Shown here one piece after another: positions 7,637-54,064 of a stretch of DNA of 57,181 nt. The stretch is from Bacteroidales bacterium (lineage in GTDB: Bacteria; Bacteroidota; Bacteroidia; Bacteroidales; UBA10428): contig JAFGOR010000101.1 of the NCBI GenBank assembly GCA_016926375.1, positions 1-57,181 of the forward strand. Direction: 5' to 3'. The notes beneath the pieces are model-generated. The model made no database searches. It saw only the letters and a program-made list of their open reading frames with translations, and was not told the origin of the DNA. Made by a program: the position numbers and the translations under genes. Each line of letters opens with the position of its first letter. Position 1 is the first letter of the stretch.

Positions 7637-7694
7637 AATTAACCATCTTGTTCAAAAAAGTTTTTCTTCCATGGGGTAATATCATCTAAGTTTA

Positions 7695-7702
7695 TATATT
7701 TG
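7695..7702 (+). promoter_or_regulatory. -7 box upstream of the DHS homologue
   Basis: TATATTTG fits TAnnTTTG. Confidence 0.55.
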
Positions 7703-7755
7703 TCCGGAAGAAGCATGTATTTTATTTGAATGATAATCAACAAGTATTAAACGAG

Positions 7756-10511: not shown

Positions 10512-10532
10512 AGAAGCTTTCAAATAATAAGC

Positions 10533-10563
10533 AGCGATCCCCCAGGGGATCGCTTTTAATTTA
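10533..10563 (+). terminator. Intrinsic terminator after kamA
   Basis: AGCGATCCC..GGGATCGCT stem followed by TTTAATTT. Confidence 0.65.
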
Positions 10564-10618
10564 TGTTTCCTTCACATTTGCTTTCAACGTGAATCAGAAT
10601 TTTAATTAGTGATTAATA

Positions 10619-11605: not shown

Positions 11606-12566
11606 AAAGGTCATTATTCTTCATAATGCTGTTGCCGGGAACAGCAACCCCGATGAGGCTGATGTGCTGCATCAGGTGGAGCTGGTTTCAAAAGCACTGA
11701 CCGTTTTAGGATATCACCCCATTGCATTCCCGTTACAGGATGACCTTATTCAGGATATGAAGTCCATTGAGAAAAGTGAGCCCCTGTTTGTATTCAACCT
11801 GGTAGAAGCTGTATTCAATAAAGGAGAATTGCTGTATATGGGTCCGGCTTTGCTGAATGCCCTGAAAATTCCCTATACCGGAGTTCCGGTTGAAGGTTTG
11901 TTTTTGACCACCAATAAGGTGCTTACCAAAAAAATCCTGGAGTACAACCACATTCCCACCCCAGGTTATTTCACCACCAATGAAGTTCACAGGTTGAAGT
12001 CAGGCACCCGGTACCTGCTCAAACCGGTAAGCGAAGACGGTTCAGTGGGTCTGGATGAAGATGCGGTTTTTACAGTTGAACAAACAGCCATTACCTGCAA
12101 CATCAGCCGGCAACCAGCTTCTCATTATTTTATTGAAGAGTACATCGAAGGACGTGAGTTTAATATCAGCATTCTGGGAGGAAAGGGCAAGAGAGACGCA
12201 CTGCCTGCTGCCGAAATGATTTTTAATGATTACCCGGCAGGTAAGCCACGCATACTGGGCTATAAAGCCAAATGGGATGAATCGTCGGCAGAGTTTAAAA
12301 ACACCACCCGCGCATTCAATACGCTATCGCAGGAATCGCCTTTATACCGTGAACTTGTGCAATTAACAGAGGCATGCTGGGATTGTTTTAACCTGAAAGG
12401 TTTTGCACGGGTTGATTTCCGGATTGACCAAAATGAGCAGCCATATGTTATTGAAATCAACGGAAATCCATGTATTTCACCCGACAGTGGTTTTATAGCG
12501 GCAGCTAACCAGGCGGGACTTTCCAGTGCTGATGTAATTGCAAGAATAATTGAAGAATTGACATAA
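11595..12566 (+). CDS. D-Ala-D-Ala ligase-like ATP-grasp peptide ligase 2 (non-canonical)
   Basis: IPYTG, LKPVSEDGS.G, IEEYIEGREF, ARVDFR and IEINGNP motifs; start MENKK overlaps the upstream stop. Confidence 0.88.
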   Translation: MENKKVIILHNAVAGNSNPDEADVLHQVELVSKALTVLGYHPIAFPLQDDLIQDMKSIEKSEPLFVFNLVEAVFNKGELLYMGPALLNALKIPYTGVPVEGLFLTTNKVLTKKILEYNHIPTPGYFTTNEVHRLKSGTRYLLKPVSEDGSVGLDEDAVFTVEQTAITCNISRQPASHYFIEEYIEGREFNISILGGKGKRDALPAAEMIFNDYPAGKPRILGYKAKWDESSAEFKNTTRAFNTLSQESPLYRELVQLTEACWDCFNLKGFARVDFRIDQNEQPYVIEINGNPCISPDSGFIAAANQAGLSSADVIARIIEELT

Positions 12567-23481: not shown

Positions 23482-23546
23482 CCCGCCTAAGCTTTAGCGG
23501 AGGCAGGTCTTTTAAGTCTACTAAGTCTACTAAGTCTACTAAGTCT
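23482..23546 (-). repeat. REP-like hairpin (inverse of 7239-7264) followed by (TAAGTCTAC)x3+
   Basis: Read directly. Confidence 0.75.
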
Positions 23547-23635
23547 TTTACGACAGGAAACCTTGGGTAAGGTTGTGAGATAAGTTACGAAAAATTAAAA
23601 GATAAAGAAAGGATATTTGTCTGGTCAGGTTAATG

Positions 23636-23738
23636 GAGCCAGGCTTGCCTGCCGGCGGGCAGGAGCCAAGCCTGCCTGCCGGCAGGAGCCAATGGCTAAC
23701 CTGCCTACCGGCAGGCAGGTAGCTAATAGCCAATAGCT
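23636..23738 (+). repeat. Three CCTGCCTGCCGGCAGGCAGG-type palindromes within an AGCCAAT heptamer array
   Basis: Copies at 23644-23663, 23671-23686 (partial) and 23700-23719. Confidence 0.8.
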
Positions 23739-23745: not shown

Positions 23746-26700
23746 TCAGGGATTGACTTCCAGCAGCTTCAGGTAGCCGTTGTTAATGGCAAACAGCAAC
23801 CCTTCTTTTCCGGAGGCCAGCTTGATTTTTCCTATAGCCTTTACCTCTCCCCGCACACACAAGCCGCTTTCAGCCGGTGGAATGGCTCTGATGTTCCCTT
23901 TGGAATCTGCCTTCAAAACAAGCCCTATACTGGCATCATTCCGGGGTGTTGCGCTTTCCGATGCATAAAAATTGCCGGCAATAACAAATGCAGTTTCATT
24001 ACCGTCATAATTAATTGCTGCCGTTGCATTCACCGAAGAAATTTGAGCCCAGTTGGGCAATGGATGCATTGAGAAGTTGCCATTTCCCTGATTCTCAATC
24101 CAATAATGCGCAAATGTATTGGTTGTGTAGTGCAATGAGGCATTCAGCATGACTTCACCATAAATATCCTCAAGCGTAGCACTGGCAAAATCCTTATAAG
24201 TGGCAAACCTGAGTTTGACTACAGGTATCTGTTTGGATGTGGCATCAAAATCATGCGCGGGGTAACGTGTTCCGTTCTCCCCGTAAGCCATAACGATATC
24301 ATTTCTTCCATCCACGTCAAAATCATTGATAAAGACTTCAAAAGGCTCTTCTTTACTTGTTTTATATTTATAATTCAAACCCAGGTTACCGGCTACAAAA
24401 TCTGTGTCGCCATCCTTGTCCATATCGATGGATTGAATGCTGTACCACCAGCCAACGGTTTCACCAAAGCCTTTTTTTATGGTTACATCTGTAAATCCGG
24501 CATCAGTATTCTCAAAAAAGCAGATTTTCATCCATTCACCCACCACAATCAGGTCCATATCCTGATCGCCATCGAAGTCGTTCCATAAGGCATCGGTCAC
24601 CAGCCCGATCTGACTTAATGCCGGTGCCACCTGACTGGTCACGTTATCAAACCTCAGTTCCGATCCTTTTTTGCCATTATTTCTCAAAACATAACTGTTG
24701 GCGGGGTAAGGGTAATTTCCGGGCACTATGCGGCCGCCCACAAACAGATCCAGATCACCGTCGCGATCATAATCAGCAGCTTTTACGCATTTTCCGCTTA
24801 TATTCAAATCTGCAGGAAGGGCATTTGAGCTCTTTTCAAACCCTTTTCCTGTGTTCAGGTACAATCTGTCCTGATAGAATTCCGTAGGCTTTCTGATATC
24901 GTTTCCTCCGCTTACCACATATAAGTCTGTTTTGCCGTCACCATCTGCATCAAACAGCAATGCTCCCGTATCTTCAAAGTTTTTATCGTTGTTCCATGGT
25001 CCGGACATTTCCTTAAAGGCACCTGTTTCTGTTTGCAGATACATGGCTGCTTTTGACCCCTGGGCATTGCCGATAAAGAAGTCGTCAAGGCCGTCACCGT
25101 TGACATCACCGGTAGCCAGTCCGGGACCCATTTGCGAGTTTTTATGGGGTAGGAGTTCTTCAGTCAGAAAATCATCAAAGTCATCCTCCGTGTGCCTGAA
25201 GTTGATCCCGGATGCAATGGTAATGTCTCTGAAGTGTTGTTTCTTTTCAGGAGCAGCCGGCTTAACCTTATCGGCATTTTTATAGGATAATTTCAGGGTT
25301 TGGTTTGCCTGTATATTTTTAAGAATCTGCATTTTGTTGTCGGGCCAAACTATGGTTAACTCATCAATGGTGTCGTGCTGAGCCAGGCCAAAATGCAGGG
25401 TTGCAGGCACACTCGACTGGTATCCGCGGGTCAGGGTCAGTTCCTGGTATTGCGTTATATCTTTGGTTTTCACCGTGATGATGCTTCCCAGGCCAAATAA
25501 ATTGTGATCGGGACCAGCCAGGTTGATTTTGATAAAATGGTTATTGGTACTGTTTGCAGCCCTGTTTTCATAAATGGCTGAAACTTCATTCACATTGCAG
25601 ACCACAACATCCAGGTCTCCGTCGTTGTCGAAGTCGGAATACGACATGCCGTTGGCAAGTGTTGGCTCCTCAAAACCCCATGCTACTGAAACATCAGTAA
25701 ATGTAAGATCACCATTGTTTTTGTAAACATAGTTTCTCACGGGCGTACTGGGAAAGAGTTCGGGCCGGTATTCTTTAACCTGCCTGAAGTATTCATTTTC
25801 CATAGGATCGCGAAGTATGTCGCGATCATTGATGTCTTTCAGCACGCCATTAGCAACAAAGAGATCCTTATAGCCGTCGTTATCCAAATCCAGAAAAGTT
25901 CCGCCCCAGCTCCAGTCGGTATAAGCCGTACCGGCAAACAGGGTGATGTTGCTGTAAACCGGGATGCTGTCGAAAATGCCGTTGTTGATCTGCAGTGAGT
26001 TCTGCATATACTGGTAATGAAAGCCGAATCCAATACTTTTATTGAATGTTTCACGTCGCATGGGCATCACATTCACAACCCTGCGGAAATGATCCTCCGG
26101 GGTCATGTCTATCTGGAACATGTCAACCAGTCCGTCGTTATTGACGTCGGCTGCATCGAAACCCATCCCGAAAATAGATGTTTGAAAGGTAGCCTCTTTC
26201 ACCACTTCCCTGAATGTGCCGTTGCCATTGTTCAGGTAAAAGCGATCGGGCGGATTGAAGTCATTGGAAATATAAAGATCCTTCCATCCGTCGTTGTTAT
26301 AATCCATAGCCACAACACCAATCGACATACCGAAATTTCTCACGCCGGCTTCATCAGTGACATCAGTGAAGGTCCCGTTCCCGTTGTTTCTAAATAAGTG
26401 GCCTGATTCTTCCAAATTATTCTCAGTGACTTTATTATAATAGAAATCAGCACCTTGGCTCACCAGAACAATGGGGTAATTGGCCACAAAAAGATCAAGA
26501 AAACCATCGTTGTTATAGTCAAAGAAGGTTGCCTGAACTGAAGAGCTATTGTCGTTGATGCCGTATGTTTTGCCACTTTCCGTGAAGGTGTTGTTTTTGT
26601 TGTTGATAAACAATAAATTATCCGAAGGCGGGTATTTTCCTGAAACGCAAACGTATATGTCGAGCCAGCCGTCGTTATTTACATCGGCCATGGTTGATCC

Positions 26701-27033
26701 GGTAAACCACTGGTGATTACCCATAATTCCCGCTTGCTCGGAAATATCTTCAAACTTCATATTTCCCTTATTCAAATAGAGCCTGCTGGGAACAAGGTTG
26801 CCTGTGAAGAAGATATCATCGAGTCCGTCGTTGTTGATATCGCCCACCGAAACGCCGCATCCCATATACATGTATGGAAAAATGGTGTAGTTCAGGGTGT
26901 CATTTTCAATCAACTCATTCAGAAAGTCAATACCTGTTTTGGATGGGGAAAGTTTTTTGAATGGTTCTTTGGAAAACTTATCACACGACAACAGCAAAAG
27001 ACAAGTAAGGAGTATGATGAAAGAGGACTTCAT
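23746..27033 (-). CDS. FG-GAP/VCBS-repeat lipoprotein with central ASPIC/UnbV domain (CRTAC1-like), copy B
   Basis: Lipobox LLSC; many DxNxDGxxD repeats; RGYQSS...LHFGL...IVWPD ASPIC motif. Confidence 0.88.
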   Translation of the reverse strand: MKSSFIILLTCLLLLSCDKFSKEPFKKLSPSKTGIDFLNELIENDTLNYTIFPYMYMGCGVSVGDINNDGLDDIFFTGNLVPSRLYLNKGNMKFEDISEQAGIMGNHQWFTGSTMADVNNDGWLDIYVCVSGKYPPSDNLLFINNKNNTFTESGKTYGINDNSSSVQATFFDYNNDGFLDLFVANYPIVLVSQGADFYYNKVTENNLEESGHLFRNNGNGTFTDVTDEAGVRNFGMSIGVVAMDYNNDGWKDLYISNDFNPPDRFYLNNGNGTFREVVKEATFQTSIFGMGFDAADVNNDGLVDMFQIDMTPEDHFRRVVNVMPMRRETFNKSIGFGFHYQYMQNSLQINNGIFDSIPVYSNITLFAGTAYTDWSWGGTFLDLDNDGYKDLFVANGVLKDINDRDILRDPMENEYFRQVKEYRPELFPSTPVRNYVYKNNGDLTFTDVSVAWGFEEPTLANGMSYSDFDNDGDLDVVVCNVNEVSAIYENRAANSTNNHFIKINLAGPDHNLFGLGSIITVKTKDITQYQELTLTRGYQSSVPATLHFGLAQHDTIDELTIVWPDNKMQILKNIQANQTLKLSYKNADKVKPAAPEKKQHFRDITIASGINFRHTEDDFDDFLTEELLPHKNSQMGPGLATGDVNGDGLDDFFIGNAQGSKAAMYLQTETGAFKEMSGPWNNDKNFEDTGALLFDADGDGKTDLYVVSGGNDIRKPTEFYQDRLYLNTGKGFEKSSNALPADLNISGKCVKAADYDRDGDLDLFVGGRIVPGNYPYPANSYVLRNNGKKGSELRFDNVTSQVAPALSQIGLVTDALWNDFDGDQDMDLIVVGEWMKICFFENTDAGFTDVTIKKGFGETVGWWYSIQSIDMDKDGDTDFVAGNLGLNYKYKTSKEEPFEVFINDFDVDGRNDIVMAYGENGTRYPAHDFDATSKQIPVVKLRFATYKDFASATLEDIYGEVMLNASLHYTTNTFAHYWIENQGNGNFSMHPLPNWAQISSVNATAAINYDGNETAFVIAGNFYASESATPRNDASIGLVLKADSKGNIRAIPPAESGLCVRGEVKAIGKIKLASGKEGLLFAINNGYLKLLEVNP

Positions 27034-27089
27034 GTTTATTGTATATATTGGGTTGCGAGGGCCGAATATATTACAATTATTTTGAAAAA

Positions 27090-28727
27090 TCAGTATCCCG
27101 GATTCTGATCCTCCTTGTTTATGTTAGGATTCAAATCAATTTCAGATTGTGGAATGGGCCAGAGCTCATGTATGGCCGGATCAAAGTCTATGGCATCCTT
27201 ATGATATCCTGGTAAAAAAGGCTTTATTTCGTTGTTGATGAATGCTTCAAGCCTGCGCCATCTTACCAGGTCATCGAACCGGACTTGTTCACTGCAAAGT
27301 TCCACTTTACGTTCATGTTCAATGGCTATTCTGATCTGTTCTTTGGTGGAAACAGGATAAATGTTATCCATTGCCGGGGTTCCGTAATTGGGCATCATGA
27401 CATCTGCTCTGTTTCTAACCTGATTTATATAATCCACCGCTGCATCAAGATTACCCAATTCGTTTTCTGCCTCAGCCATCATCAGGCATACATCGGATAA
27501 CCGGATTACCTTAGTATTAATTCCTGATGTATTATTTTCATACGGTCTTTTATAGTAATTCTGGTATTTCCGCCAAGCATATCTCGTATAGTGATCAACC
27601 CGCATCGTATCGGCCTCCCAATAATAAAAATCAAGAACAGGTATGTCCAAGGTTCGGGTGTTATTATCATACAAGTCACCTGTTGAATAAATGGAGTAAC
27701 CTCTTCGCGGATCAGTTTTAATTCCGTTATCGGCATCTGTTTCAAATTCATCGAAGGTGTTATGGGTGACAAAAACATTGAACCAGTTATTTACACCATA
27801 TTCCATTCCCCTGAATGTACCTTCGTTATATCCCGAACCGTCATCGGCTGCCCATATATCAGCAGTACCCAGTTCCGGTTGGAATTCAACTTCGAAAATT
27901 GATTCAATTCCATGTTCGGTTTCTTCTTCGAAATTATTCAGATAACGGTCTTCCAACCGGTAATTCACATTGTCGCTCAATACCTGAATAAAGGCATTCC
28001 TGGCAGCAGCATAATCCGCCTCACTGTTCGACTCGTTGGCCTGAAACAAATGGACTTTCCCCAAAAGAGCCCATGCTGCACCGGATGTTGCCCGTCCCTT
28101 TTCTTCAATACTCTTGGCCAGGCAATGGTTTGCTGCAATTTCCAGATCTTCTTCAATCTGGCTCCAGACTTCGGCTATTGGAGATCTTGGGAAACCTTTT
28201 TCATTTGCATTGGGGTTGACCGTAAGTAACGGAACATCACCAAACCTTGTTACCAGCAGGAAATAGTAAAGTGCCCTTAAAAAGTGTGCTTCGCCAATGT
28301 ATTTATCTTTCAATGTCTGTGACAGCTCATTTTTTGGAATCTGTTGGATGAGGCCTTCGTTATGAATAACAAAGTTGGCCCGGTTAATACCTCTGTAACA
28401 GTTTTTCCAATATTCCCCGATGGCGACGTGAGTTGCATCGAATGAAAATCGGCTATATTGCAATTTATCAGCTTCAGCCGAGGGATTCATCAACTGTTCC
28501 TGGGCCATATTATCCAGTGCAAAAAAAAGATTGCGCTGATACAATCCCCTGGTTTGCAAATTGGCATAAATAGCATTTACTGCCTGTTGAACCTGCAATT
28601 CAGTTTTAAAATATATCTCCGGGGTTAACTGGTTTGGGTTTGTTAATTCCAGTTTATCTAAATTGCACCCAAACAAAGAGAAAAGCATTAAAGCAGCAGT
28701 TGCAATAAACAAATGCTTTTTTTTCAT
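27090..28727 (-). CDS. RagB/SusD family lipoprotein, copy B (no adjacent SusC)
   Basis: Lipobox LFGC; GEAHFLRA.YYF.LV..FGDVPL, GRAT, HERKVEL and QNPGY motifs. Confidence 0.92.
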   Translation of the reverse strand: MKKKHLFIATAALMLFSLFGCNLDKLELTNPNQLTPEIYFKTELQVQQAVNAIYANLQTRGLYQRNLFFALDNMAQEQLMNPSAEADKLQYSRFSFDATHVAIGEYWKNCYRGINRANFVIHNEGLIQQIPKNELSQTLKDKYIGEAHFLRALYYFLLVTRFGDVPLLTVNPNANEKGFPRSPIAEVWSQIEEDLEIAANHCLAKSIEEKGRATSGAAWALLGKVHLFQANESNSEADYAAARNAFIQVLSDNVNYRLEDRYLNNFEEETEHGIESIFEVEFQPELGTADIWAADDGSGYNEGTFRGMEYGVNNWFNVFVTHNTFDEFETDADNGIKTDPRRGYSIYSTGDLYDNNTRTLDIPVLDFYYWEADTMRVDHYTRYAWRKYQNYYKRPYENNTSGINTKVIRLSDVCLMMAEAENELGNLDAAVDYINQVRNRADVMMPNYGTPAMDNIYPVSTKEQIRIAIEHERKVELCSEQVRFDDLVRWRRLEAFINNEIKPFLPGYHKDAIDFDPAIHELWPIPQSEIDLNPNINKEDQNPGY

Positions 28728-28826
28728 CTTCAATATTTCAATTAATATTACCCTAAAGTTATAAATATTATTCTGATATCTAATACTGTATGTGCTTAAT
28801 GAATATTGGGGGCCCTTATAGATCTG

Positions 28827-31800
28827 TTATTTAATTTGGAATATCTGTATTTCACTGTTGTTATTTCCTACCAAAACAGCAGATTTGCTTTCATTGTCAT
28901 TAAGGCGGATCAGTGAAAGTGCCTTGACATCTCCCGGAACAAAAAATCCGGAAAGGGCAGGGGCAACTGTTGAGAAATTGCCCTTGCCATCACCTTTTAA
29001 AAATGTACCCACTCCGGCATCGTTTCTGGGTGTCGCCACTTCCACGTTGAAAAGATTACCTGCAGCAAGGATATCCTGTTTTCCATCCCTGTCAAAATCT
29101 TCAAGAATAATTCCGTTTGTGGATGACAACTGTGCTTCATTGGGCAAAGGATGCGGTATAAATTTACCATCACCGGTGTTTTCGAAGTAGTAACTGGCAA
29201 AGGTTTCAGCCTGAAGGTGCAAAGACTTCTCAAGCAAATCATTGGTGAATATATCTGAAACTGTGGCGGCACCAAATTCCGCGTATGTAGGAAATTTAAT
29301 GGCAATCCAGGGATTCTGGCTGACGAAACAGGATCTTCCCCTAAGCGGATATTGCTTTTCTTTCTGATAATAGCTGAGGACAATATCAGATCCTCCGTTA
29401 TTATTAAAATCTCCTGCATAAACGTCAAAAGTGTTGCCGGGTTTTGCCTGGTATCTGAAATTCAGGCCCAAATTTCCTGCCACAAAATCGATGTCCCCAT
29501 CCCCATCCATGTCGGCGCCTTCCACGCTGAACCACAAGCCACGGGTTCCTTCCAGAATATTCTTTTTAAATTTCCCGTTATGGTTTATAAAATAGCAAAT
29601 GGGCATCCATTCTCCTGCAACAACCAGGTCGGGCCATTCATCCCGGTTAATATCCATACAAACTGCCGAGGTTACCATGCCGATTTCCTTGAGATCCGGA
29701 GCCACTTTGGATGTAATATCTTCAAACCTTACCTGGCCATCGGCTGACTTATTTTCAAGGATATAGCTATCGGCAGGATAAGGATATTTCCAGGGGATTT
29801 GCCGTCCGCCGACAAACAAATCCAGGTCTCCGTCTTTATCAAAGTCAATTGGCTTCACACAGGAACCGCTTGAATAAATCCGGGGCAATCCATTTTCATC
29901 CTTGTGAAAATTGCCTTTTCCGTCATTGATGTATAACCGGTCGGCATATTCTGTTGACCCTGCCGGGAATTCGTAACCACCGCTCACCACATACAGGTCA
30001 AGGTCTTCATCTCCGTCTGCGTCAAAAAATAAAGCACCGGTAACATCCGTTTCAATATCTTTTTCCCAGGGTCCTGAATGATTTACAAAAGTTCCATTTT
30101 TCTGTTGCGTAAACAAAGCCGCCGGACTTTTCGCAGCATTGCCGATAAAGAAGTCTTCAAAGCTGTCGTTGTTGATGTCACCAACGGCAATGGCCGGACC
30201 CAACATCGACATTTTGTGAGGCAACAGCACCTGCTTCTGGTAATCATTAAAAGCATTTTCCCTATGAACAAAAACAGGATGACCCTGATTGGTTACTTCA
30301 TCAAATAGGGGCATCTGTTTTACTGACCGGGGAACAGCAGGTAATGCATCCGTGTGTTTTACAACAAGTTTCTGGTTGACACTGACATTCAGGAGCAACT
30401 GGTTTTTTCCGTCGGGCCATTTAATCAAAAGGGAATCAATCTCTTCATTTTGGGCGAGTCCGAAATAAAGTATAGGTTCCACTGAAGATTGATAACCCCT
30501 TGACAACGTAAGCTCGGCACATTGCATTTTCCCTTCGGTCCATAGAGTTACTTCCGATCCTATGCCCATTTTGTTTTTATTGGTTCCTTCAAAAGAAATT
30601 TTCAAATAGTTTCCGAGTGATTGTTCAAGAGCATTATTATTATATATAAATGCTTCTGCATCAATATTATTTACGATTAATTCGAGATCACCGTCATTAT
30701 CCAGGTCGGCATAAGCCATACCATTTGAATAACTCGTTTCAGTAATGTTCCATTCCTGGTTCACCTGCGAAAAGGTAAGATCGTGGTTATTCCGGTACAA
30801 ATAATTCGTCAGTGGCTTATAGGGCATTTTTTTGAGGAAGTACAGGTTTCTATCCTTTCCTTTAATGGTTTTCTGATCCGCAGTTTCTTCTATTTCGTTA
30901 AAAAAATCAATATTATTGATATCCCTGCGAGAGCCATTGGTAATGTATAAATCCTTCCACCCATCCAGATCAAAATCTGCAAACAGTGCTCCCCAGCTCC
31001 AATCGGTGGATGTTACACCTGCAATCCAGGCTGTATTGGAGAAGTGTGGCAGTCCGTTTTTATGAATACCTCTGTTCAATTGCAGCGTGCTGTAACGATA
31101 TTGAAAATTGAGACCTTGCTGGATCATCTCCTCAAAATCAGCCAGGGGCATACTGGTCATATTTTCTTTGGCCCGTTGATTATCTTCCGGAGCCATATCG
31201 ATTTGGAGGATGTCCTGCAAACCGTCATTATTAATATCAGCAATGTCAGCTCCCATTCCATAAAAAGAAGTCTGTGAGGCCATTTCCAGGCACCGGTCGG
31301 TGAAAGTGCCATTACCATTGTTCATATAAAAAAAATCGGGACTTGTAAAATCATTGGAAACATAAAGGTCCTTATATCCGTCCTGATTCAGGTCGCTGAC
31401 CGTGGCACTTAAAGTAAGGCCAAAATTTAACAGGCCAGCCTGTTCCGTAACGTCCGTAAATTTGCCATTACCTTCATTACGGTATAAATGGCTCGACTTA
31501 CTGTGTTGTGCATTACGCATCATCTGGCGGTAAAAATAGGGAGTCATTTGAAAATGGGTGATGGGGTAATTGGCCACGTATAAATCAAGATCACCATCGT
31601 TATCAAAATCAAAAAAAGTGCTGTGGGTGCTTTTGCCGTTATCGTCAATGCCATATTTTGCAGCTTCCTCGATAAAAACAGGGATGCCCACATGATTGTT
31701 ACCCTGGTTGACAAACAACATGTTCCTGCACATATCGGTAACGCCTGACACACTGATATAAATATCCGGCAGTCCGTCATCATTGATGTCGCAAACAGTT

Positions 31801-32171
31801 GATCCGAGCATCCAGCGGCCATCGCCCCCGGTTTGAGATATTTCGGTCACATCTTTGAATTTGAGATTGCCCTGGTTCAGGTAGAGCCTGTTGCTTACCA
31901 TGTTGCCGGTAAAATAGATATCAGTAAGCCCGTCGTTGTTAAAATCGGCCACTGAAACCCCGCCTCCCATATACATGTATGGGAACAGAAAGTAATTGAA
32001 AGTGTCGGTTTCGGTGAGCGTGTTTTGAAAGGTGACGCGTGTAAAAGAAGTGGGGAGTTTCTTAAAAAGTTTCTTCTTACCTGTAAATGAATTGCATGCA
32101 GAAAGTATCATGAACAGAATAATCAAGCCGGCAGGAAAGGAAAGTCTTTTACTAGAGTAGAGAATTGTCAT
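28827..32171 (-). CDS. FG-GAP/VCBS-repeat lipoprotein with ASPIC/UnbV domain, copy A
   Basis: Lipobox LSAC; DFNNDGLTD-type repeats; SRGYQSSVEP.LYFGL..IKWPDG. Confidence 0.88.
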   Translation of the reverse strand: MTILYSSKRLSFPAGLIILFMILSACNSFTGKKKLFKKLPTSFTRVTFQNTLTETDTFNYFLFPYMYMGGGVSVADFNNDGLTDIYFTGNMVSNRLYLNQGNLKFKDVTEISQTGGDGRWMLGSTVCDINDDGLPDIYISVSGVTDMCRNMLFVNQGNNHVGIPVFIEEAAKYGIDDNGKSTHSTFFDFDNDGDLDLYVANYPITHFQMTPYFYRQMMRNAQHSKSSHLYRNEGNGKFTDVTEQAGLLNFGLTLSATVSDLNQDGYKDLYVSNDFTSPDFFYMNNGNGTFTDRCLEMASQTSFYGMGADIADINNDGLQDILQIDMAPEDNQRAKENMTSMPLADFEEMIQQGLNFQYRYSTLQLNRGIHKNGLPHFSNTAWIAGVTSTDWSWGALFADFDLDGWKDLYITNGSRRDINNIDFFNEIEETADQKTIKGKDRNLYFLKKMPYKPLTNYLYRNNHDLTFSQVNQEWNITETSYSNGMAYADLDNDGDLELIVNNIDAEAFIYNNNALEQSLGNYLKISFEGTNKNKMGIGSEVTLWTEGKMQCAELTLSRGYQSSVEPILYFGLAQNEEIDSLLIKWPDGKNQLLLNVSVNQKLVVKHTDALPAVPRSVKQMPLFDEVTNQGHPVFVHRENAFNDYQKQVLLPHKMSMLGPAIAVGDINNDSFEDFFIGNAAKSPAALFTQQKNGTFVNHSGPWEKDIETDVTGALFFDADGDEDLDLYVVSGGYEFPAGSTEYADRLYINDGKGNFHKDENGLPRIYSSGSCVKPIDFDKDGDLDLFVGGRQIPWKYPYPADSYILENKSADGQVRFEDITSKVAPDLKEIGMVTSAVCMDINRDEWPDLVVAGEWMPICYFINHNGKFKKNILEGTRGLWFSVEGADMDGDGDIDFVAGNLGLNFRYQAKPGNTFDVYAGDFNNNGGSDIVLSYYQKEKQYPLRGRSCFVSQNPWIAIKFPTYAEFGAATVSDIFTNDLLEKSLHLQAETFASYYFENTGDGKFIPHPLPNEAQLSSTNGIILEDFDRDGKQDILAAGNLFNVEVATPRNDAGVGTFLKGDGKGNFSTVAPALSGFFVPGDVKALSLIRLNDNESKSAVLVGNNNSEIQIFQIK

Positions 32172-32206
32172 ATGATAATTAGCAAAAATAATTTTGGCAA
32201 TATAGC

Positions 32207-32242
32207 AAAAAAAAAATGGCCCGTATAAAGGGCCATTTTTTT
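32207..32242 (-). terminator. Bidirectional intrinsic terminator after the first susD
   Basis: A10-TGGCCC-loop-GGGCCA-T7. Confidence 0.8.
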
Positions 32243-32264
32243 ATTAGACTATTTCAGGAAGATA

Positions 32265-33914
32265 TTATTGTGCATATCCTGGATTCTGATCAGTAGTCTC
32301 GATATTGGTATTGCGATCGATTTCAGCTTGTGGAATGGGCCACAGGTGATTTCTTGCAGCAGAATATACCAAACCGGCCTGTTCAGTAATCGGAAGCCAG
32401 CTACCGTCTCCGTTATTGTCCCATGCGGGATCAATATTGGGATCGCTTACAAGCTGAGCGATGAATGCATCCAACTTGCCCCACCTTAAAAGGTCGTCAA
32501 AGCGGATTTGCTCACCGGCTAACTCAACTTTACGTTCATGTTCCAATGCATCCATAAATTCTGTCAGGTTTCCAACAGGATAAATGGCATCCATTTCTGG
32601 TGTGTCATAAAGAGGCATATCCACATCACCTCTTTGTCTTACCTGATTCATTAAAGCAATTGCAGCATCCAGATCACCACTGGGTCTGTTGGCTTCACAT
32701 TCAGCCATCATAAGCAGCACGTCTGCATAACGGATCACTTTCATATTGATACCGGAAGACATGTCAACAACGTTGGCTTGTTTGTAGTATGAATGGTATT
32801 TGTTCCAGCCCTGGCGTGTAACAATTTCAGTTTCACCACCCAAAACAGTAGTTACATCAGCTATTTCTACAGTACCGCCGAAATAGGTATCGCCATTCTG
32901 ATAAATGGTAAAGCCAAGTCTTGGGTCAGTTTTCACACCATTATCAGCAGCAGTCTCATATTCTGCGGTGAGATTATCTGAAGGATAAACATTGAACCAG
33001 TCACGCCAGCCGTATTCCTGATCTCTAAAGCAAGCCTCGTTCAAACCTACATCGGATCTGTCAGAATTCCAGCGAGCTGAATATCCTGCTTCTCTGCTGA
33101 ACTGAACTTCAAAAAGAGATTCAACACCATTTTCGGTTTCTTCTCTGAAATTGTTGGAAAAAACAGGTTCGAGGGAATATCCTTCTATTTCATTGAAAGC
33201 GTCTAAAGCCGACTGATATTTTTCCTGATATAACCTGGCTTTTCCAAGCAATGCCCATGCAGCACCTTTTGTTGCTCTGCCAAGTTCTTCATCGGCTTTG
33301 TTCAATAATAATGTTGTAGCATCAACAAGGTCTCGTTCGATAAGTTCCCAAACTTCGGCAACATCAGTACACCTGGCCTTGCCAACATTATCTGCCGGAG
33401 CGATTTCATAAATCGGAATTCTTCCGTACCTGTTCACAAGCATGAAATAATACAGAGCACGCATAAATTTTGCTTCACCAATGAATTTGTCCTTCCTTTC
33501 CTGAGGAGTTACACTTTCGGGTATCAAAGCTATTTTTTCGACGTTGTTAATCACAAAATTAGCTTTATTAATACCCCTGTAGCAACTTTCCCAGAAACCT
33601 TCAATAGCACCATGAGAAGCGTTAAAAGTAAAATCGAGATATTCTCTCTTATCTGCTTCTAATTGAGTGTTGCCTGAGGTTTCATGTGACATGTTATCAA
33701 GTCCGAACCACATATGGCGGTTGTACAAACTGGTTGTCTGTAAACTTCCGTAGATGGAATTGACAGCAGACTGCAACTGAGCATCTGTGGTAAAATAGGT
33801 CTCAGGAGACAGATCGTTAGGATTCTTGAGCTCAAGTTTATCCGCATCGCAAGAATTTATTGCCAATGCACCAAGGACCAGTGCAGGAATAAATAATAAC
33901 TTATTTATTTTCAT
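32265..33914 (-). CDS. RagB/SusD family lipoprotein, copy A
   Basis: Lipobox INSC; GEAKFMRA, GRATKGAA, IRYADVLLM and HERKVEL motifs; directly after SusC. Confidence 0.93.
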   Translation of the reverse strand: MKINKLLFIPALVLGALAINSCDADKLELKNPNDLSPETYFTTDAQLQSAVNSIYGSLQTTSLYNRHMWFGLDNMSHETSGNTQLEADKREYLDFTFNASHGAIEGFWESCYRGINKANFVINNVEKIALIPESVTPQERKDKFIGEAKFMRALYYFMLVNRYGRIPIYEIAPADNVGKARCTDVAEVWELIERDLVDATTLLLNKADEELGRATKGAAWALLGKARLYQEKYQSALDAFNEIEGYSLEPVFSNNFREETENGVESLFEVQFSREAGYSARWNSDRSDVGLNEACFRDQEYGWRDWFNVYPSDNLTAEYETAADNGVKTDPRLGFTIYQNGDTYFGGTVEIADVTTVLGGETEIVTRQGWNKYHSYYKQANVVDMSSGINMKVIRYADVLLMMAECEANRPSGDLDAAIALMNQVRQRGDVDMPLYDTPEMDAIYPVGNLTEFMDALEHERKVELAGEQIRFDDLLRWGKLDAFIAQLVSDPNIDPAWDNNGDGSWLPITEQAGLVYSAARNHLWPIPQAEIDRNTNIETTDQNPGYAQ

Positions 33915-33934
33915 AATTTCTTTGGTTTTTAAAA

Positions 33935-36900
33935 TTAGAATGTAAGCTGAATACCTGTTGTGATAGATTTCGGCGTCGGGTAATTACCATAATCGATACC
34001 ATTGGAGAAGTTAACTGCAGCTCCTCTTCCGCCAATCGAGTTAGCACCAGCTCCGTTAACTGAATAAGCACCTATTTCAGGATCAAGTCCTTCATATTTG
34101 GTTAATGTAATCAGGTTCTGACCGCTGACATAAATTCTTACTTTGGTAATTTTGTTTTTCAGAATACTGGAAGGAACGGTATATCCAAGGGTAAGGTTTT
34201 TTAACCTGGTATAGGAACCATCCTGTACAAAGCGGGTTGAAGGATCGGTATTGTTTGCATGGATACCGGCTCTCGGTATGGTGTTGGACGGATTGGTCGG
34301 TGTCCAGCGGTCCAAAACAGCGGTACCGGCATTGAACAAGCGGTCCATACCTTCCAGGTCCCAGATATTGGTATTGTAAATGTCCTGGCCATAAGCACCG
34401 GCAATGAAAAGATTCAGGTCAAAACCCTTATAAGATGCATTCACATCAAGACCAAGAGTCATTTTCGGGAATGGATTCCCAATGTTACCTCTGTCAGAGC
34501 TGCTGATGGAACCATCGCCATCTGTGTCAACAATACGGAAGTCACCGGCTGCAGCTCCACCAACAGTGGCCTGTGAGCCGTCCAAATAGTCAAGAGCTTC
34601 CTGATCCGTCTGGAAAATACCGTCAAATGTATATCCATAGAAGAAGAAGGCGGGTTCACCAACTTCGCAACGGGTAAGGTTATCACCTTCAAATCCACCA
34701 CCTTCAATTACAGTTGCCTTACCTAATGACAAGATTTCGTTTTTAGCGGTACCAAGATTCAAATTGGCTGACCATTGGAAGTCGCCTTCAAAATCATTAT
34801 AACCGAATACAAATTCAAAACCTTTGGATTCTACTGAACCGGCATTTTCAGAAATGCTTCCGGTAAAATCGCCTAATGAATTAGCCAAAGGAGCAGGCAT
34901 CAGCAGGTCATCACTTTTGTTGATGAAATATTCAGCAGCAAGGGTGAATCTGTTTTGGAACAGGCCTAAGTCAATACCGACGTTGGTCATGGTTGTTTCC
35001 TCCCACTTCAGGTCAGGATTGGCAGCTCCCCGTGGAGTGGTACCCTGAACAGCTAAATCATTAATAACATAGTACATATCGGAAGTAAGCGTTGCAGAAT
35101 AAGCATAGTTTCCAATCTTGTCGTTACCTGCTTTACCCCAGCTACCTCTCAGTTTTAAATTGCTGATTGCAGCGATATTTGACATAAAAGCTTCTTTATT
35201 GATATTCCAGCCCAAAGCAACAGAAGGGAAAGTACCCCATCTGTTATTGGCACCAAACCGGGAAGAAGCATCTTTTCTGATTGATGCAGCCAACAAATAT
35301 TTCTGATTGAAATTATAGTTCAACCTTCCCAGGTAACCAATACGGCCATACTCAGATAAATTGGAGCCGGCTGATAAATTCAACTGTGAAAGCTGTCTTA
35401 CTTCGTCGGTTATTGAGTTTTCACTGGAAACATTTTGAGTTCTTGTTGTAATCTCACTGTTTTCAATAACTCCCAGCAATTCGAAATTATGTTTCTCAGC
35501 CAAAGTTTTGGTATAGGTTAAGCTGTTGGTAAACAGAATTGAATTATAGTTGGAAGTATTCTTACGTATGATGGCATTGGGTGCATTATGTGTGGCATCA
35601 ATATTGTCATCATCGTAGGAGGGTTGGAACTGATCGTCAAGAACCCTAACCACTTCATAACCCACCAATGATTTAAATTTTAAACCGTTGATAATTTCCA
35701 ATTCTGCATATAAGTCACCAATGATACCTGTTGAATTTGATACCCAATGGTTTAATTTCATAATGCGAACCGGGTTTTCAGCATCCTGACCGTCAACACC
35801 GGAATTCGGGCCCTGGAAACCACCTTTATTATCGGGATTGTAAACAGGCAGATATGGAGCCGATTTAATGGCATGTTCAATAAGCGAACGGCCACCAGAG
35901 TTCAGTTCAGGGCGTTGCCTGGCGAATGAAATACCGATGTTTTCACCGATTTTCAAACGGCCAATCTTAAAGTCGCTATTTGCACGTACGTTATAACGCT
36001 CATATCCCGTATTGATGAAAATACCTTCCTGATTTAAGTAGCCTGCGGATACTCTGAAGCTTGCATTTTCTGTACCACCGGAAGCGCTTAAGTTATAATT
36101 TTCCATTTTACCTTTTTGGAAAATCTCATCCTGCCAATCGGTTTCGCCACCTTCAGGTCTGCCGGGGAGAATTCCGTTGAGACGGTCTGCATAAACAGGA
36201 TTATTGAATACCGCTGCACCGCCCCAAGCTTCAACAGCATATTGTTCATACTGATCATTATTCATAACATCATATCTTGCATTTGACCACTGCGTACCAT
36301 AATATGCATCAAAGCTGATTACTGATTTTGCAGCTGAAGAACCTTTTTTGGTGGTAATCATAATGACACCATTGGAACCTTGCGATCCGTAAATTGCAGT
36401 TGTGGAAGCATCTTTCAGAATTTGCATTGATTCGATATCATTGGGGTTGATACCTGCAATTGAAGAAGCTATTACACCATCAACAACATACAAGGGGTCA
36501 TTGTTGTTTACAGTATTAATACCTCTAACACGCATGGTAGGAGCAGTACCAGGAGCACCATTGTTGATAACTGTTACACCAGCTGCACGGCCCTGTAATG
36601 CCTGATCAAGAGTTCCTGTAGGTATGGCAGTAAGTTTTTCTGAAGTAACGGATGTAACGGCACCGGTTACCTCAATTCTCTTCTGTGTACCATATCCAAC
36701 TACAACAACTTCTTCGAGGCTCTGAACATCGGGTGCCAAAGCAACGTTGAGAACAGTCTGGTTGGTAACGGTAATTTCCTCAGGCATATAACCAATAAAG
36801 CTGACAACCAAAACGTCACCTGCTTTAGCGTCAATGGAGAAATTTCCATCTACATCAGCAACAGCGCCGCGGGTTGTACCTTTAACCTGAACATTGGCGC

Positions 36901-37333
36901 CCGGAAGAGGTTCCTGTGTACTGGCATCAGTAATGGTACCCTTTATGGCAACCTGCTGCAGATTGGTCTTCGGAGTTAATACTACAAGGTTGTCATTGAA
37001 TACCTTGTAAGTAATGTCTGAAGTTTCGAAAAGTTTTTCCAGAATCTGCTCAACATTCTGATTTTCAATATTCATACTGACAACATTGTCAATATAATTG
37101 AAATCGTCGTTGTAGAAGAACCTGAACTGACTTTGCTGCTCCAGGATCTGGAAAACCTCACGTACAGTTTTCCCGTTCAAATCCAGGCTGAATTTGGTAT
37201 TCTGTGAATACACAGATGCGCCCAGATTCAAAGACAAAGCAATTGAAAATAGCGTAGTTAGTTTCATAATTAGGATTAGTTTTTTAAGTCTCCTTTTGTG
37301 AGGGGAAACTTCATCACAAAAATTGTTTTTCAT
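33935..37333 (-). CDS. SusC/RagA TonB-dependent transporter with N-terminal signalling (STN) extension
   Basis: LEEVVVVGYGTQ, LKDAS.TAIYG..G.NGVI.ITTK and NPDLKWE motifs; C-terminal F; long N-terminal extension. Confidence 0.95.
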   Translation of the reverse strand: MKNNFCDEVSPHKRRLKKLILIMKLTTLFSIALSLNLGASVYSQNTKFSLDLNGKTVREVFQILEQQSQFRFFYNDDFNYIDNVVSMNIENQNVEQILEKLFETSDITYKVFNDNLVVLTPKTNLQQVAIKGTITDASTQEPLPGANVQVKGTTRGAVADVDGNFSIDAKAGDVLVVSFIGYMPEEITVTNQTVLNVALAPDVQSLEEVVVVGYGTQKRIEVTGAVTSVTSEKLTAIPTGTLDQALQGRAAGVTVINNGAPGTAPTMRVRGINTVNNNDPLYVVDGVIASSIAGINPNDIESMQILKDASTTAIYGSQGSNGVIMITTKKGSSAAKSVISFDAYYGTQWSNARYDVMNNDQYEQYAVEAWGGAAVFNNPVYADRLNGILPGRPEGGETDWQDEIFQKGKMENYNLSASGGTENASFRVSAGYLNQEGIFINTGYERYNVRANSDFKIGRLKIGENIGISFARQRPELNSGGRSLIEHAIKSAPYLPVYNPDNKGGFQGPNSGVDGQDAENPVRIMKLNHWVSNSTGIIGDLYAELEIINGLKFKSLVGYEVVRVLDDQFQPSYDDDNIDATHNAPNAIIRKNTSNYNSILFTNSLTYTKTLAEKHNFELLGVIENSEITTRTQNVSSENSITDEVRQLSQLNLSAGSNLSEYGRIGYLGRLNYNFNQKYLLAASIRKDASSRFGANNRWGTFPSVALGWNINKEAFMSNIAAISNLKLRGSWGKAGNDKIGNYAYSATLTSDMYYVINDLAVQGTTPRGAANPDLKWEETTMTNVGIDLGLFQNRFTLAAEYFINKSDDLLMPAPLANSLGDFTGSISENAGSVESKGFEFVFGYNDFEGDFQWSANLNLGTAKNEILSLGKATVIEGGGFEGDNLTRCEVGEPAFFFYGYTFDGIFQTDQEALDYLDGSQATVGGAAAGDFRIVDTDGDGSISSSDRGNIGNPFPKMTLGLDVNASYKGFDLNLFIAGAYGQDIYNTNIWDLEGMDRLFNAGTAVLDRWTPTNPSNTIPRAGIHANNTDPSTRFVQDGSYTRLKNLTLGYTVPSSILKNKITKVRIYVSGQNLITLTKYEGLDPEIGAYSVNGAGANSIGGRGAAVNFSNGIDYGNYPTPKSITTGIQLTF

Positions 37334-37456
37334 AATTTCGAGTTGTTTTTAGAGTTAGACATTTATTGATGCAGGTTTAATTCGATTAACAATGCATTAT
37401 TGATGTTTTACTAGATGATTCAGGGAGCAGATGTCATGGTCTGTTCCCTTTTTTTT
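37333..37456 (+). ncRNA. Candidate cis-antisense sRNA to the susC leader (DonS-like)
   Basis: TAATTTCG (-7-like, 1 mismatch) overlaps the susC ATG; + strand terminator AGGGAGCAGA...TCTGTTCCCT-T7 at 37422-37456. Confidence 0.5.
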
Positions 37457-37526
37457 ACTTTTAATTCATCATGGGCACTTTTTGTTAAAAGGTTAATAAT
37501 AAGGTTATACAGGTTTACTTTTATCT

Positions 37527-38681
37527 TCATTTCTTTTTCAGGTGATCACTGAATTTCTTGGTCATCTGTTGGTTTTCAAATATTTTAACTGTCTTCCCCT
37601 CCAGTTCATAATCAATGGGGGCAGACAGTTTAATTACATCCAGCACCTGTGTAAGGGTTTCATCTTCCAGGGTGCCGGTAAAACGAAAATGCCTTATAAT
37701 ATCTGATTCATACGAAAAGGTAACGTCGTATTTGCGTTCCAATTTAGTCAAAATATTACCGAATTCTTCACTTTTGAAAACAAGTTTGTTATCTTTCCAT
37801 GAAATGATAGGATCAGGATTGATCTCAGCAGCTAAATAAACAACTCCCTTTTTCAGTTTGAGCACTTCAGGTTTGACTTCCCTGATGACAACCATTTCCT
37901 GAATCGTCAGCTTGCTGTCTTCCTTAATATAAACTGCTTTTTGAAGGGGTTTCAGTGAGATTGCTTCTGATTTTTTCTGCTTCAGCTTGTTGTGCCAGAT
38001 GGAAACACTGCCTTCAATCAGGGTGGTTTCAACAAAGTCTTCGTCGCCGTATGCTTTTACGTTGAATTCTGTTCCAACTGCAACTATGTTAAGATCAGCG
38101 GTTTTTACATTGAAGGGGAGCCGGGCATTTTTAGCAACAATAAAATAAGCTTCGCCCTCGAGCAGGATGTCTCTGTTTTTCTTGTTGAAAATATCGGGAT
38201 ATTTGATTTTACTTCCGGCATTGAGCCAAACTCTGGATCCGTCAGGGAGCAGTACCTCTGACCTTGCACCGAGCGGTGCTTTGATTTCATTATAGGAAAC
38301 AGCAACTGGTTGTTCCGGCCTGTTAAACATAAGAAAAGAGAATACCCCTCCTCCTGTAAACATGAGCAAAAATAAAGCGGCAATCCGCAAAAACTGCCAC
38401 ATTTTTTCTTTGTGAAACAAATTGGCTTTACTTTTTTCCGTATCGGAAACCGGCAGGGAAGTTTTGATATTATTAAAAATGTGTCTGAAATCAACATCTC
38501 CTTGAATGGATTTGTTGACATGGTAAGCATTCAGATCTTCCAATAACCATTCTTTAATCAAACTTTCATTTGTTGAATCGGCAAGCCAGTCCCACAATTT
38601 CCTCAGCTCACTTCCTGTACACTCCTGCCTGTTAAACTTCATGAAAAGTTCTTTGTATTCAATAATACCCATGCGCACCAA
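37527..38681 (-). CDS. FecR family anti-sigma factor
   Basis: One TM helix; LPDGS.VWLNAGS, L.GEAYF.V, GTEFNV and FTG motifs; exact start uncertain. Confidence 0.92.
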   Translation of the reverse strand: MVRMGIIEYKELFMKFNRQECTGSELRKLWDWLADSTNESLIKEWLLEDLNAYHVNKSIQGDVDFRHIFNNIKTSLPVSDTEKSKANLFHKEKMWQFLRIAALFLLMFTGGGVFSFLMFNRPEQPVAVSYNEIKAPLGARSEVLLPDGSRVWLNAGSKIKYPDIFNKKNRDILLEGEAYFIVAKNARLPFNVKTADLNIVAVGTEFNVKAYGDEDFVETTLIEGSVSIWHNKLKQKKSEAISLKPLQKAVYIKEDSKLTIQEMVVIREVKPEVLKLKKGVVYLAAEINPDPIISWKDNKLVFKSEEFGNILTKLERKYDVTFSYESDIIRHFRFTGTLEDETLTQVLDVIKLSAPIDYELEGKTVKIFENQQMTKKFSDHLKKK

Positions 38682-38817
38682 TAATACGTGAACATAATTT
38701 TTCCTGCCCTATTAATACATCTATGTGACATGAAGTACTCACAAGAAATTAAAAAAAAATTAAAAAAAGATTAAAATGCTGTTAACAAGAAGCGGGTAGA
38801 TGATCATAAATTGCAGA

Positions 38818-39387
38818 TTACTGCTCAGTTAGGAGATATTTTTCATTCAGGTGCTCCTTGAGGTATCGGAGTGCCCTGTATATCTGATTCTCTACCGATC
38901 GTACCGACAATCCCAGGCGATCGGCAATTTCCTGGTGCGACAGGCCTTCCTGCCTGCTGAGCCGGAATATCATCTGCTGCCTTAACGGAAGATTTTCGAT
39001 TAGTGTGTCAAGCATGCCCTTTAAGTCGTTAAAATAAACAGTCTGCTGGGCATGGTCATCTTCCAGTGAATTCTGAACGATTACCTGTTCAATGTATCTT
39101 TGCTTTACAGCCTTGTGCTTGAAGTAATTATAAATTCTGTTGGTAACCGCTTTGTAGAGGTAATTTTTAAGCGAGTTGTCTTCCTCCAGGTTCAAGCGGT
39201 TTTCCCAGAGTGCAACAAACAATCCCTGGATGATTTCTTCAGTTTCTGCTACAGAACGCACATAACCCAAAGTAAAGAAATACAACTTTTCCTTATACTC
39301 ATCAAAGACCAGCTCAAAGGCTTCAATATCCCCATTCTTGAGCTTTGTGATCAGGTGCAGTTCTTCTTTTATGAACTTGGAACTCAA
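38818..39387 (-). CDS. ECF RNA polymerase sigma-70 factor
   Basis: GD..AF; EEIIQ.LF..LWE; LP.RQ..IF.LSR.EGLS..EIA..L..S.R.VE; TTG start; -7 box at 39430-39437. Confidence 0.92.
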   Translation of the reverse strand: MSSKFIKEELHLITKLKNGDIEAFELVFDEYKEKLYFFTLGYVRSVAETEEIIQGLFVALWENRLNLEEDNSLKNYLYKAVTNRIYNYFKHKAVKQRYIEQVIVQNSLEDDHAQQTVYFNDLKGMLDTLIENLPLRQQMIFRLSRQEGLSHQEIADRLGLSVRSVENQIYRALRYLKEHLNEKYLLTEQ

Positions 39388-40009: not shown

Positions 40010-40384
40010 CTAAATATTACCCTGATAAGATGCGGCAAGTTCAAACGCTTTTCCTTGTAACTTATTAACGAGCAATTCAATAAGTTTTACATAGATCCGG
40101 ATTGATCTTTTGGATTTGAGCAGTCCTGCCAGTGCAAAAATTCCTGCATTTCCAAATGCATACCGGACATTGTTCAGATGCATACGTTCCTCGCAGTTCA
40201 AAGCAAGCATAGCCTCCTCCGGAAAAAGATCTGGGTTTGATTCAACCAGCCTGTAAATGGTTTCCGTATCTGTTTCAAACAATTCAGCAATATCAGAATC
40301 AATGAATACCTCCTTGTTTCTGATTACCTTAACACGTTCGGCAATAAATGAATCCAACCCCATAACTGAGATATTTTCTGTCAT
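40010..40384 (-). CDS. ORF6N domain-containing protein
   Basis: I.VIR..EV.ID.DIAELF..T......V..N...FP and YAF...G...LAG.LKS patterns; -7 box TACCTTTG at 40403-40410 supports the MTENI start. Confidence 0.75.
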   Translation of the reverse strand: MTENISVMGLDSFIAERVKVIRNKEVFIDSDIAELFETDTETIYRLVESNPDLFPEEAMLALNCEERMHLNNVRYAFGNAGIFALAGLLKSKRSIRIYVKLIELLVNKLQGKAFELAASYQGNI

Positions 40385-40609
40385 AATGGTTTTGGTGTTG
40401 ACCAAAGGTAATTAAATATTTTCACAAGGGAAATTTATCAAATATTAATCTTACATTTCTTGTTATTTACTGTTTGGGATTGATAACCACATCAATCCAC
40501 ATCCTTGGTTATCTGTAACCCGAAGAAAAATGGAAACCTGTTCGCATGACTTTTATTATGAAATGAAACGATGCTTTTTAATACATTTGATCAAACGTGA
40601 TGATTTGCC

Positions 40610-52765: not shown

Positions 52766-52776
52766 AGTATTGCGAT

Positions 52777-53325: not shown

Positions 53326-53338
53326 GGAATGGGATATT

Positions 53339-54052: not shown

Positions 54053-54064
54053 GGTGAAAATTCT

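Follow-up and report, generated by a model that had tools for sequence, protein, structure and literature searches.

Two double-propeller UnbV lipoproteins in a SusCD locus of a Bacteroidales bacterium: a possible periplasmic relay in xylan-type oligosaccharide uptake

What do two large propeller lipoproteins do in a nutrient-uptake locus without any recognizable enzyme? The question is raised by positions 23,746 to 39,387 of contig JAFGOR010000101.1 from a Bacteroidales bacterium (assembly GCA_016926375.1; 86% complete, 294 contigs). The window is the whole 57,181-nucleotide stretch of this contig that was analysed. A preliminary description had identified here a SusCD locus, of the kind known from polysaccharide utilization loci (PULs), whose only cargo is two FG-GAP/UnbV lipoproteins, here called U1 and U2. 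Comparison of sequences and predicted structures leads us to a tentative answer: the locus may provide uptake and signalling in a split xylan-type system, with U1 and U2 as periplasmic lipoproteins that hold or relay the imported sugar. We rank holding or relay, with some hesitation, narrowly ahead of catalysis.

Seven open reading frames, all on the minus strand, occur in the order previously described, and the outer positions of the locus are the ends of the U2 and sigma factor genes. The first gene (38818..39387) encodes an extracytoplasmic function (ECF) sigma factor of the Bacteroidota type (TIGR02985, 157 bits against a cut-off of 126), and the second (37527..38681) a FecR-type anti-sigma factor with FecR and FecR_C domains (PF04773 and PF16344). 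The third (33935..37333) encodes a SusC-like TonB-dependent transporter (TIGR04056, 886 bits against a cut-off of 368) with an N-terminal STN domain (PF07660). Sigma factor, anti-sigma factor and STN domain together make up the parts of a trans-envelope signalling transporter system, in agreement with the preliminary description. The susC gene is separated by 20 nt from susD1 (32265..33914; PF07980/PF14322), and the two form a Sus-type susC–susD pair. Downstream are the genes for U1 (28827..32171; 1114 aa), SusD2 (27090..28733) and U2 (23746..27033; 1095 aa). SusD2 has SusD domains and is a paralog of SusD1 (48% identity) that, according to the tree, arose within the genus.

Pfam and NCBIfam searches of the seven proteins found no glycoside hydrolase (GH), polysaccharide lyase (PL), carbohydrate esterase (CE), sulfatase or peptidase domain. 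Likewise, no carbohydrate-active enzyme (CAZyme) is detected by Pfam in the locus or its flanks, which contain housekeeping genes: malic enzyme below, with ORF6N and acyl-CoA synthetase genes above.

The substrate was approached through the transporter. In a FastTree phylogeny of 79 rows, SusC falls with a support of 99 into a clade of predicted xylan loci that comprises 20 rows, 12 of them congeneric or nearly so and 8 from elsewhere. In 7 of the 8 non-congeneric loci, the fetched flanks contain GH8, GH10 or GH43 enzymes, and a FastTree phylogeny of SusD agrees with this placement. As a control, enzymes of these types occur in at least 3 of 79 metagenome loci with a U gene, one of them inside the SusC clade; this is a lower bound, as neighbors were annotated by cluster representative plus 68 of 144 singletons. 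The closest non-congeneric SusC and SusD that we found (55% and 49% identical) are both from locus G355. Its gene order, GH10–MFS–GH43–U–SusD–SusC–MFS (MFS, major facilitator superfamily), is that of a PUL listed as 'xylan', PUL 372, in PMC6298971, where SusC and SusD trees are reported to cluster by predicted substrate.

We found 15 congeneric copies of the locus, and the downstream flank is visible in 12. In 6 of these 12, a co-oriented GH9 gene stands behind U2 (79–89% identity among the four intact ones), and some of the GH9-bearing loci also contain GH3, GH43-CBM6 (CBM, carbohydrate-binding module) or GH51 genes; three further copies abut the malic enzyme gene, as here. The 850-aa GH9 group is represented at 5283-7838 of locus L159, with homologs in L162, L166 and L190, and it is linked to the locus in congeners; its only solved relative is a weak one, 6DHT (E 3.5e-4). 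Elsewhere in its own genome, the bacterium has unlinked homologs of GH43 (up to 77% identity), GH8 (60%), GH3 (80%), GH115 (50%), CE6/CE1, CE15 and GH10 enzymes, as well as a gene pair whose motifs suggest xylose isomerase and xylulokinase. Because the transporter belongs to a clade found among xylan enzymes, congeners link the locus to GH genes and the genome contains the unlinked enzymes, we interpret the locus as the part of a split hemicellulose system that handles uptake. Judging from these gene associations, a xylan-type oligosaccharide is the most likely substrate, with cello- or xyloglucan oligosaccharides next. The absence of CAZymes is thus true of this copy but local, since congeners and clade relatives have linked enzymes and the genome has unlinked ones.

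On which side of the outer membrane would U1 and U2 act? In Bacteroidota, lipoproteins of the cell surface have an acidic export signal following the +1 cysteine (PMC5080379), and a 2026 preprint defines it as a net negative charge over the next six residues (10.64898/2026.10.03.756453). SusD1, with its lipid-anchor cysteine at position 22, has a net charge of −2 in this stretch and SusD2 of −1, and both carry the signal. In U1 (Cys26) the net charge is +1 and in U2 (Cys17) it is 0, and neither has it. A lipobox is present in 113 of 127 U proteins, and the net charge is zero or higher in 46 of 63 after dereplication at 60%. A stricter form of the signal (two acidic residues and a net negative charge) occurs in 10/63 U proteins versus 47/64 SusD proteins in the same dereplicated set. 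Export-signal-like N-termini were seen in none of 16 haloperoxidases, none of 10 DUF255 proteins and 2 of 8 GH3 lipoproteins, and in both of the two surface glycan-binding protein (SGBP)-type proteins from related loci. The first strand of the U proteins begins a median of 11 residues after the cysteine. Because the export signal is missing in U1, U2 and most of the family, the two proteins are likely to face the periplasm rather than the cell exterior. The placement of U1 and U2 in the slot of surface proteins, proposed at first, is weakened by this pattern, which is that of periplasm-type lipoproteins and unlike that of SusD and the two SGBP-type proteins.

U1 and U2 share 46% identity and a common architecture (FG-GAP_3/UnbV_ASPIC). 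U1 consists of a predicted seven-blade FG-GAP propeller (approximately aa 32-515), a UnbV/ASPIC domain (aa 536-602) and a second predicted seven-blade propeller (approximately aa 618-1114). Repeats of the DxD/NxD type, counted with the same pattern in both proteins, lie on both sides of the UnbV domain, as previously noted for these ~1100-aa proteins: seven before and seven after in U1, and seven and six in U2. In the AlphaFold model, the UnbV domain is a sandwich that joins the two propellers (pLDDT 81 and pTM 0.81 for the whole protein; pLDDT 95 for a model of the first half). Domain matches (PF13517 followed by PF07593), the model and the fold comparison all place the proteins in the CRTAC1/UnbV family. 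The best fold matches of the first half are non-enzymes, CRTAC1 (Z 38.5) and LGI1 (Z 30.8), and those of the second propeller are about equal: LGI1 (Z 30.6), a KICSTOR subunit (29.7) and aldos-2-ulose dehydratase (4A7K, 29.4). Foldseek also returned CRTAC1 first, followed by generic multi-propeller proteins, and a search of the ESM Atlas gave nothing beyond the U family itself. In these searches U1 and U2 match no known CAZyme domain, as had been suspected: Pfam and NCBIfam find no GH, PL or CE domain in them, none stands at the top of the PDB profile or fold searches, and the only carbohydrate enzyme among the top 50 of either structure search is 4A7K, although others may rank lower. They are still candidates for an unrecognized binding or enzyme class.

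Several residues outside the repeats are highly conserved. In the first propeller, Asp274, Met306, Met326, Trp391, Ser392 and Trp393 are invariant in 113 sequences, and Asp325, Asp390, Asp422, Trp120 and Tyr67 are 92–99% conserved; in the second, Ser655, Arg790, Trp880, Asn900, Asn904, Gln1014 and Asn1039 are kept at 95–100% in 108 sequences. The motifs FPYMYMG, DWSWG and TPRNDA singled out in the preliminary description are present in both proteins, but only the DWSW part is invariant in the family. The conserved residues outside the calcium loops should line the top faces of the propellers, to judge from their blade position rather than from model coordinates.

U proteins follow their transporters only loosely. 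Across 29 SusC–SusD–U triples, chosen by U similarity, the identities of SusC and SusD correlate strongly (rho 0.80), and those of U correlate with SusC and SusD at only 0.21 and 0.15, falling to 0.12 and 0.03 for distant pairs. Over the same triples the median identity is 41% for U, 31% for SusC and 25% for SusD. PULs with a U gene have predicted substrates as varied as alpha-glucan, trehalose, galactan and xylan. Moreover, in 3 of the 8 non-congeneric loci the same SusC clade occurs without U. Because U identity does not track that of SusC and SusD, and the clade is sometimes without U, the U protein looks like an optional, exchangeable module, apparently with a substrate-independent job after import.

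These observations suggest the following sequence of events. SusC and SusD1, recognized by their domains, would import an oligosaccharide whose nature is suggested by the neighbors of the transporter clade. On ligand binding, the STN domain would pass a signal via FecR to the ECF sigma factor, as in known trans-envelope signalling. The hairpin behind susD1 would lower the expression of U1, SusD2 and U2. U1 and U2, lipid-anchored and with about 11 residues between the membrane and the first propeller, would probably lie on its periplasmic side; they would take the imported sugar into the conserved propeller pocket instead of capturing it at the surface, and hold it for the GH3, GH43 and GH8 enzymes and the esterases encoded on other contigs.

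Several points weigh against this reading. Five of the eight non-congeneric clade neighbors come from one genus. Three of the 12 congeneric copies are flanked by a convergent, opposite-strand GFO/3-keto-hydrolase cluster, and the linked GH9 would also suit cello- or xyloglucan oligosaccharides; no close GH9 ortholog was found in the 86%-complete genome itself (best 52–54%). The nearest solved SusC is 8AA4 (594 bits), a dextran transporter. The rule for the export signal is statistical and comes from other genera, 17/63 U proteins have a net negative N-terminus and 17/64 SusD proteins do not, and these counts include kin and are not independent. Choosing triples by U similarity narrows the range of U, weakens the correlation test and biases both rho and the medians. 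The label 'pocket' is weakened by the placement of its residues by blade position. Finally, the high, substrate-independent conservation and the invariant aspartates suit an enzyme as well as a binder.

This last point leads to the alternative that survives best, which we consider possible but somewhat less probable than holding or relay: U1 and U2 would be periplasmic enzymes of a new class, performing one and the same reaction on a range of imported sugars, be it hydrolysis, elimination or dehydration, or anomer or redox chemistry, at an invariant Asp/Trp/Met site in the first propeller. The invariant acidic and aromatic residues are non-structural, and the identity of U exceeds that of SusC and SusD over the same loci. 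The neighbors are also of a chemical type, including gluconolactonases, GFO oxidoreductases, 3-keto hydrolases and, in 21 of the 79 metagenome U loci, vanadium haloperoxidase-like genes. JGI names many homologs 'enediyne biosynthesis protein E4'; the role of E4 was not used as evidence. Aldos-2-ulose dehydratase-type propellers have a conserved histidine metal site in their channel. In the first propeller of the U family no histidine column exceeds 68% conservation; the columns found there (52–68%) are absent in U1, and those of the second propeller are His636 (88%) and His652 (66%). The VCBS superfamily includes enzymes, among them aldos-2-ulose dehydratase and RGL11 lyase, as well as lectins (PMC8023676), yet no enzyme is a top fold match and 4A7K is tied with generic seven-blade propellers. 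Nor was a haloperoxidase gene found in the 86%-complete source genome, although the control of one search gave no signal.

A bolder version of the enzymatic reading, doubtful in our view, would make the double-propeller UnbV lipoproteins the missing periplasmic stage of SusCD systems in about a quarter of Bacteroidota genomes. They would form a new enzyme class with one active site that processes any imported oligosaccharide and is swapped between loci, and they would have been overlooked because what is probably the family of the gut models has no copy.

The proposal that U1 and U2 are surface glycan-binding proteins, as SusE-position subunits of a utilisome, appears unlikely. Both are lipoproteins, their genes sit behind susD, a SusD gene immediately precedes 39 of 89 long U genes (another U precedes 11), the VCBS relatives include lectins, and in this copy a swapped tract (described below) carries the first U1 propeller along with the SusC barrel and SusD1. 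That swap is one event, however, and besides the missing export signal and the lack of co-divergence with SusC and SusD, one of the three clade loci without U has a signal-bearing, CBM4-type SGBP instead. We consider it about as improbable, or slightly more so, that U is a periplasmic scaffold or assembly helper that docks on the N-terminal extension or plug of SusC, or on TonB or BAM, and never touches sugar. The likely periplasmic position close to the membrane, the exchange of U between SusC clades and the top fold matches to protein-binding propellers would fit such a role; against it, in some genomes SusC and SusD of this clade function with no U, one large family has no U match in 87 genomes, two diverged U copies are kept for one SusC and single-propeller relatives occur far from any SusC. 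That the locus imports a non-glycan nutrient handled by U1 and U2, as also suggested in the preliminary description, is very improbable: no CAZyme is present here or in the three congeneric copies abutting the malic enzyme gene, but the transporter clade among xylan enzymes, the congeneric GH9/GH3/GH43 links and the unlinked xylan enzymes of the genome all speak against it.

The history of this copy is not simple. Within the genus, a FastTree phylogeny places SusD1 and SusD2 as sister clades, but U1 and U2 as sisters from a tandem SusD–U duplication were rejected by approximately unbiased (AU) tests (p 7e-7 for the whole protein, 0.003 for each half; LG+G4 quick trees of 26 and 25 chosen rows of 127), and the locus therefore did not arise by simple tandem duplication. 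A fixed one-to-one SusD–U partnership was also ruled out: of 14 congeneric copies, 6 have an intact SusD2, 2 a degenerate one and 6 none, which makes it absent or degenerate in 8, and both U genes are kept in all 14. SusD2 is dispensable. In addition, the copy is a mosaic. The ECF and FecR genes, SusD2, U2 and, within U1, the UnbV domain and second propeller cluster with G775, and a tract at approximately 30640..36500 (minus strand), of a different ancestry from its flanks, groups with G758/G755; it comprises the SusC barrel (AU p 4e-76), SusD1 (p 5e-4), the terminator and the N-terminal U1 propeller (support 99), and its right end is the propeller/UnbV boundary of U1. The mosaic suggests, from the tree groupings, an exchange of alleles of the transporter cassette within the genus, probably in a single event because such a chimera is found only here among 123 U1-like sequences; the tract or its junctions may also be an assembly artefact. 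Contigs from a sediment metatranscriptome are 90–99% like susC and susD1, and none of those listed falls on U1 or U2; this result was not used, as assembled contigs give no ranking of genes and the mosaic could explain it.

The terminator described earlier between susD1 and U1 is a real hairpin followed by a T-run (32210..32242, minus strand). Orthologous 3' ends of SusD1 are followed by a similar hairpin in all 17 cases (the count leaves out two frameshifted SusD1 genes present as N-terminal fragments), those of SusD2 in none of nine. The spacer behind susD2 (27034-27089) has six bases in common with the left arm of the susD1 hairpin, lying about as far from the stop codon; three congeneric copies share this match, which is perhaps a decayed duplicate terminator. 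The interval from U2 to the malic enzyme gene has stacked GC-rich inverted repeats just 3' of U2 (23635..23720), which may be an end-of-operon structure, and a 9-base tandem repeat in four overlapping copies (23507-23551). Upstream of the ECF gene, the small ORF6N-domain gene (40010-40405, minus strand) recurs in related loci L001, L002 and L172. Farther away, the window contains a lysine-2,3-aminomutase-like radical SAM gene followed by two ATP-grasp genes of the D-Ala-D-Ala-ligase type (9246-12566, plus strand), and genes for a NiFe hydrogenase large subunit and NADH-dehydrogenase-like subunits (51311-55927, minus strand), consistent with an anaerobic lifestyle.

How common is the cassette? 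The U family comprises at least 7,993 homologous clusters (of 7,996 scored candidates) and has matches at E 1e-50 in 107 of 401 Bacteroidota genomes; the large family with 0/87 is presumably a gut family. SusC or SusD is present in 54 of the 79 metagenome U loci; a scan of the genome collection with U1 only gave just three loci. Supplementary file 7 of PMC6298971 lists ASPIC/UnbV genes in at least 19 PULs (27 of 28 matches covered), with predicted substrates unknown in 11, xylose-type in four, trehalose in two, and alpha-glucan and galactose in one each. The word ASPIC occurs 0 times in the main text of that paper and is found in its supplements. The SusC–SusD–U cassette is thus widespread and already in published PUL tables, and any special rarity of the locus is not borne out. 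No functional study of the U family was found in the literature covered, outside which lie most subscription papers and bioRxiv supplements. The supplements of PMC11892949 and PMC11885536 gave no match to U family names (one scanned file excepted), and a table in PMC11036162 lists VCBS/FG-GAP proteins, with no evident tie to the U family in the 4 of 9 rows covered.

The commonest non-Sus neighbors of U genes are vanadium haloperoxidase-like lipoproteins (DUF6851 and VCPO; 25 proteins in 24 loci, including L037, L039, L041, L093, L094 and L120), which are likewise without export signal. The locus described here contains no such gene. In L063–L066 and L087, U genes stand beside genes of oxidative sugar pathways (gluconolactonase, gluconate permease, 6-phosphogluconate dehydrogenase, GH94), and in L059 a U gene occurs with a dehydratase and FAA-hydrolase set adjoining GH10. 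The genome itself contains a SusC-less cluster (L191, 2944-18550, contig C255) with three FG-GAP/UnbV proteins, one of them with tetratricopeptide repeats, together with a hydrazine-synthase-alpha-like domain protein, a YncE-like propeller, a DAHP-synthase-family gene, two periplasmic binding proteins and an asparagine-synthase-like gene.

The locus is hence an ordinary copy of a widespread, functionally unstudied cassette; what is new is the tentative assignment of a xylan-type substrate, the evidence against a surface location and the list of invariant residues. PUL lipoproteins are usually taken to be surface proteins, and a periplasmic location would run counter to this. If U is catalytic, it would constitute a new carbohydrate-enzyme class; if it only binds, it would represent a periplasmic relay absent from the current utilisome model.

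Among known systems, the nearest are the predicted xylan PULs 372 (Zobellia amurskyensis) and 271 (Muricauda), which share the SusC–SusD–ASPIC/UnbV core in the tables of PMC6298971; the present locus differs from these entries in its ECF/FecR control, second SusD, two U genes, lack of a linked CAZyme and Bacteroidales host. Flavobacterium johnsoniae has a putative xylan locus, FjXylUL (PMC7110780), which locus G047 (SusC 49% identical to ours; no U in the fetched stretch) resembles in its gene set of GH43s, CE6-CE1, GH115, GH8, a hybrid two-component system (HTCS) and MFS; loci of that type have an HTCS and linked enzymes.

In Bacteroides utilisomes, SusE-positioned surface glycan-binding lipoproteins are encoded directly behind susD. 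U shares with them the lipoprotein gene in this position, and differs in having no export signal and no Ig-like tether with CBM architecture, in being far more conserved than SusD and in not co-diverging with SusC and SusD. Aldos-2-ulose dehydratase (4A7K) resembles the second propeller in its seven DxDxDG blades (rmsd 3.3 over 358 residues, 11% identity), with no catalytic residues identified as shared. The closest structural relative is CRTAC1/ASPIC, a secreted vertebrate protein. The first propeller and UnbV domain superpose on the mouse structure (9ETN) with an rmsd of 2.5 over 462 residues at 22% identity, and a profile comparison gives an E-value of 6e-32; the U proteins differ from CRTAC1 by their lipid anchor, their helical inserts and an additional, complete second propeller.

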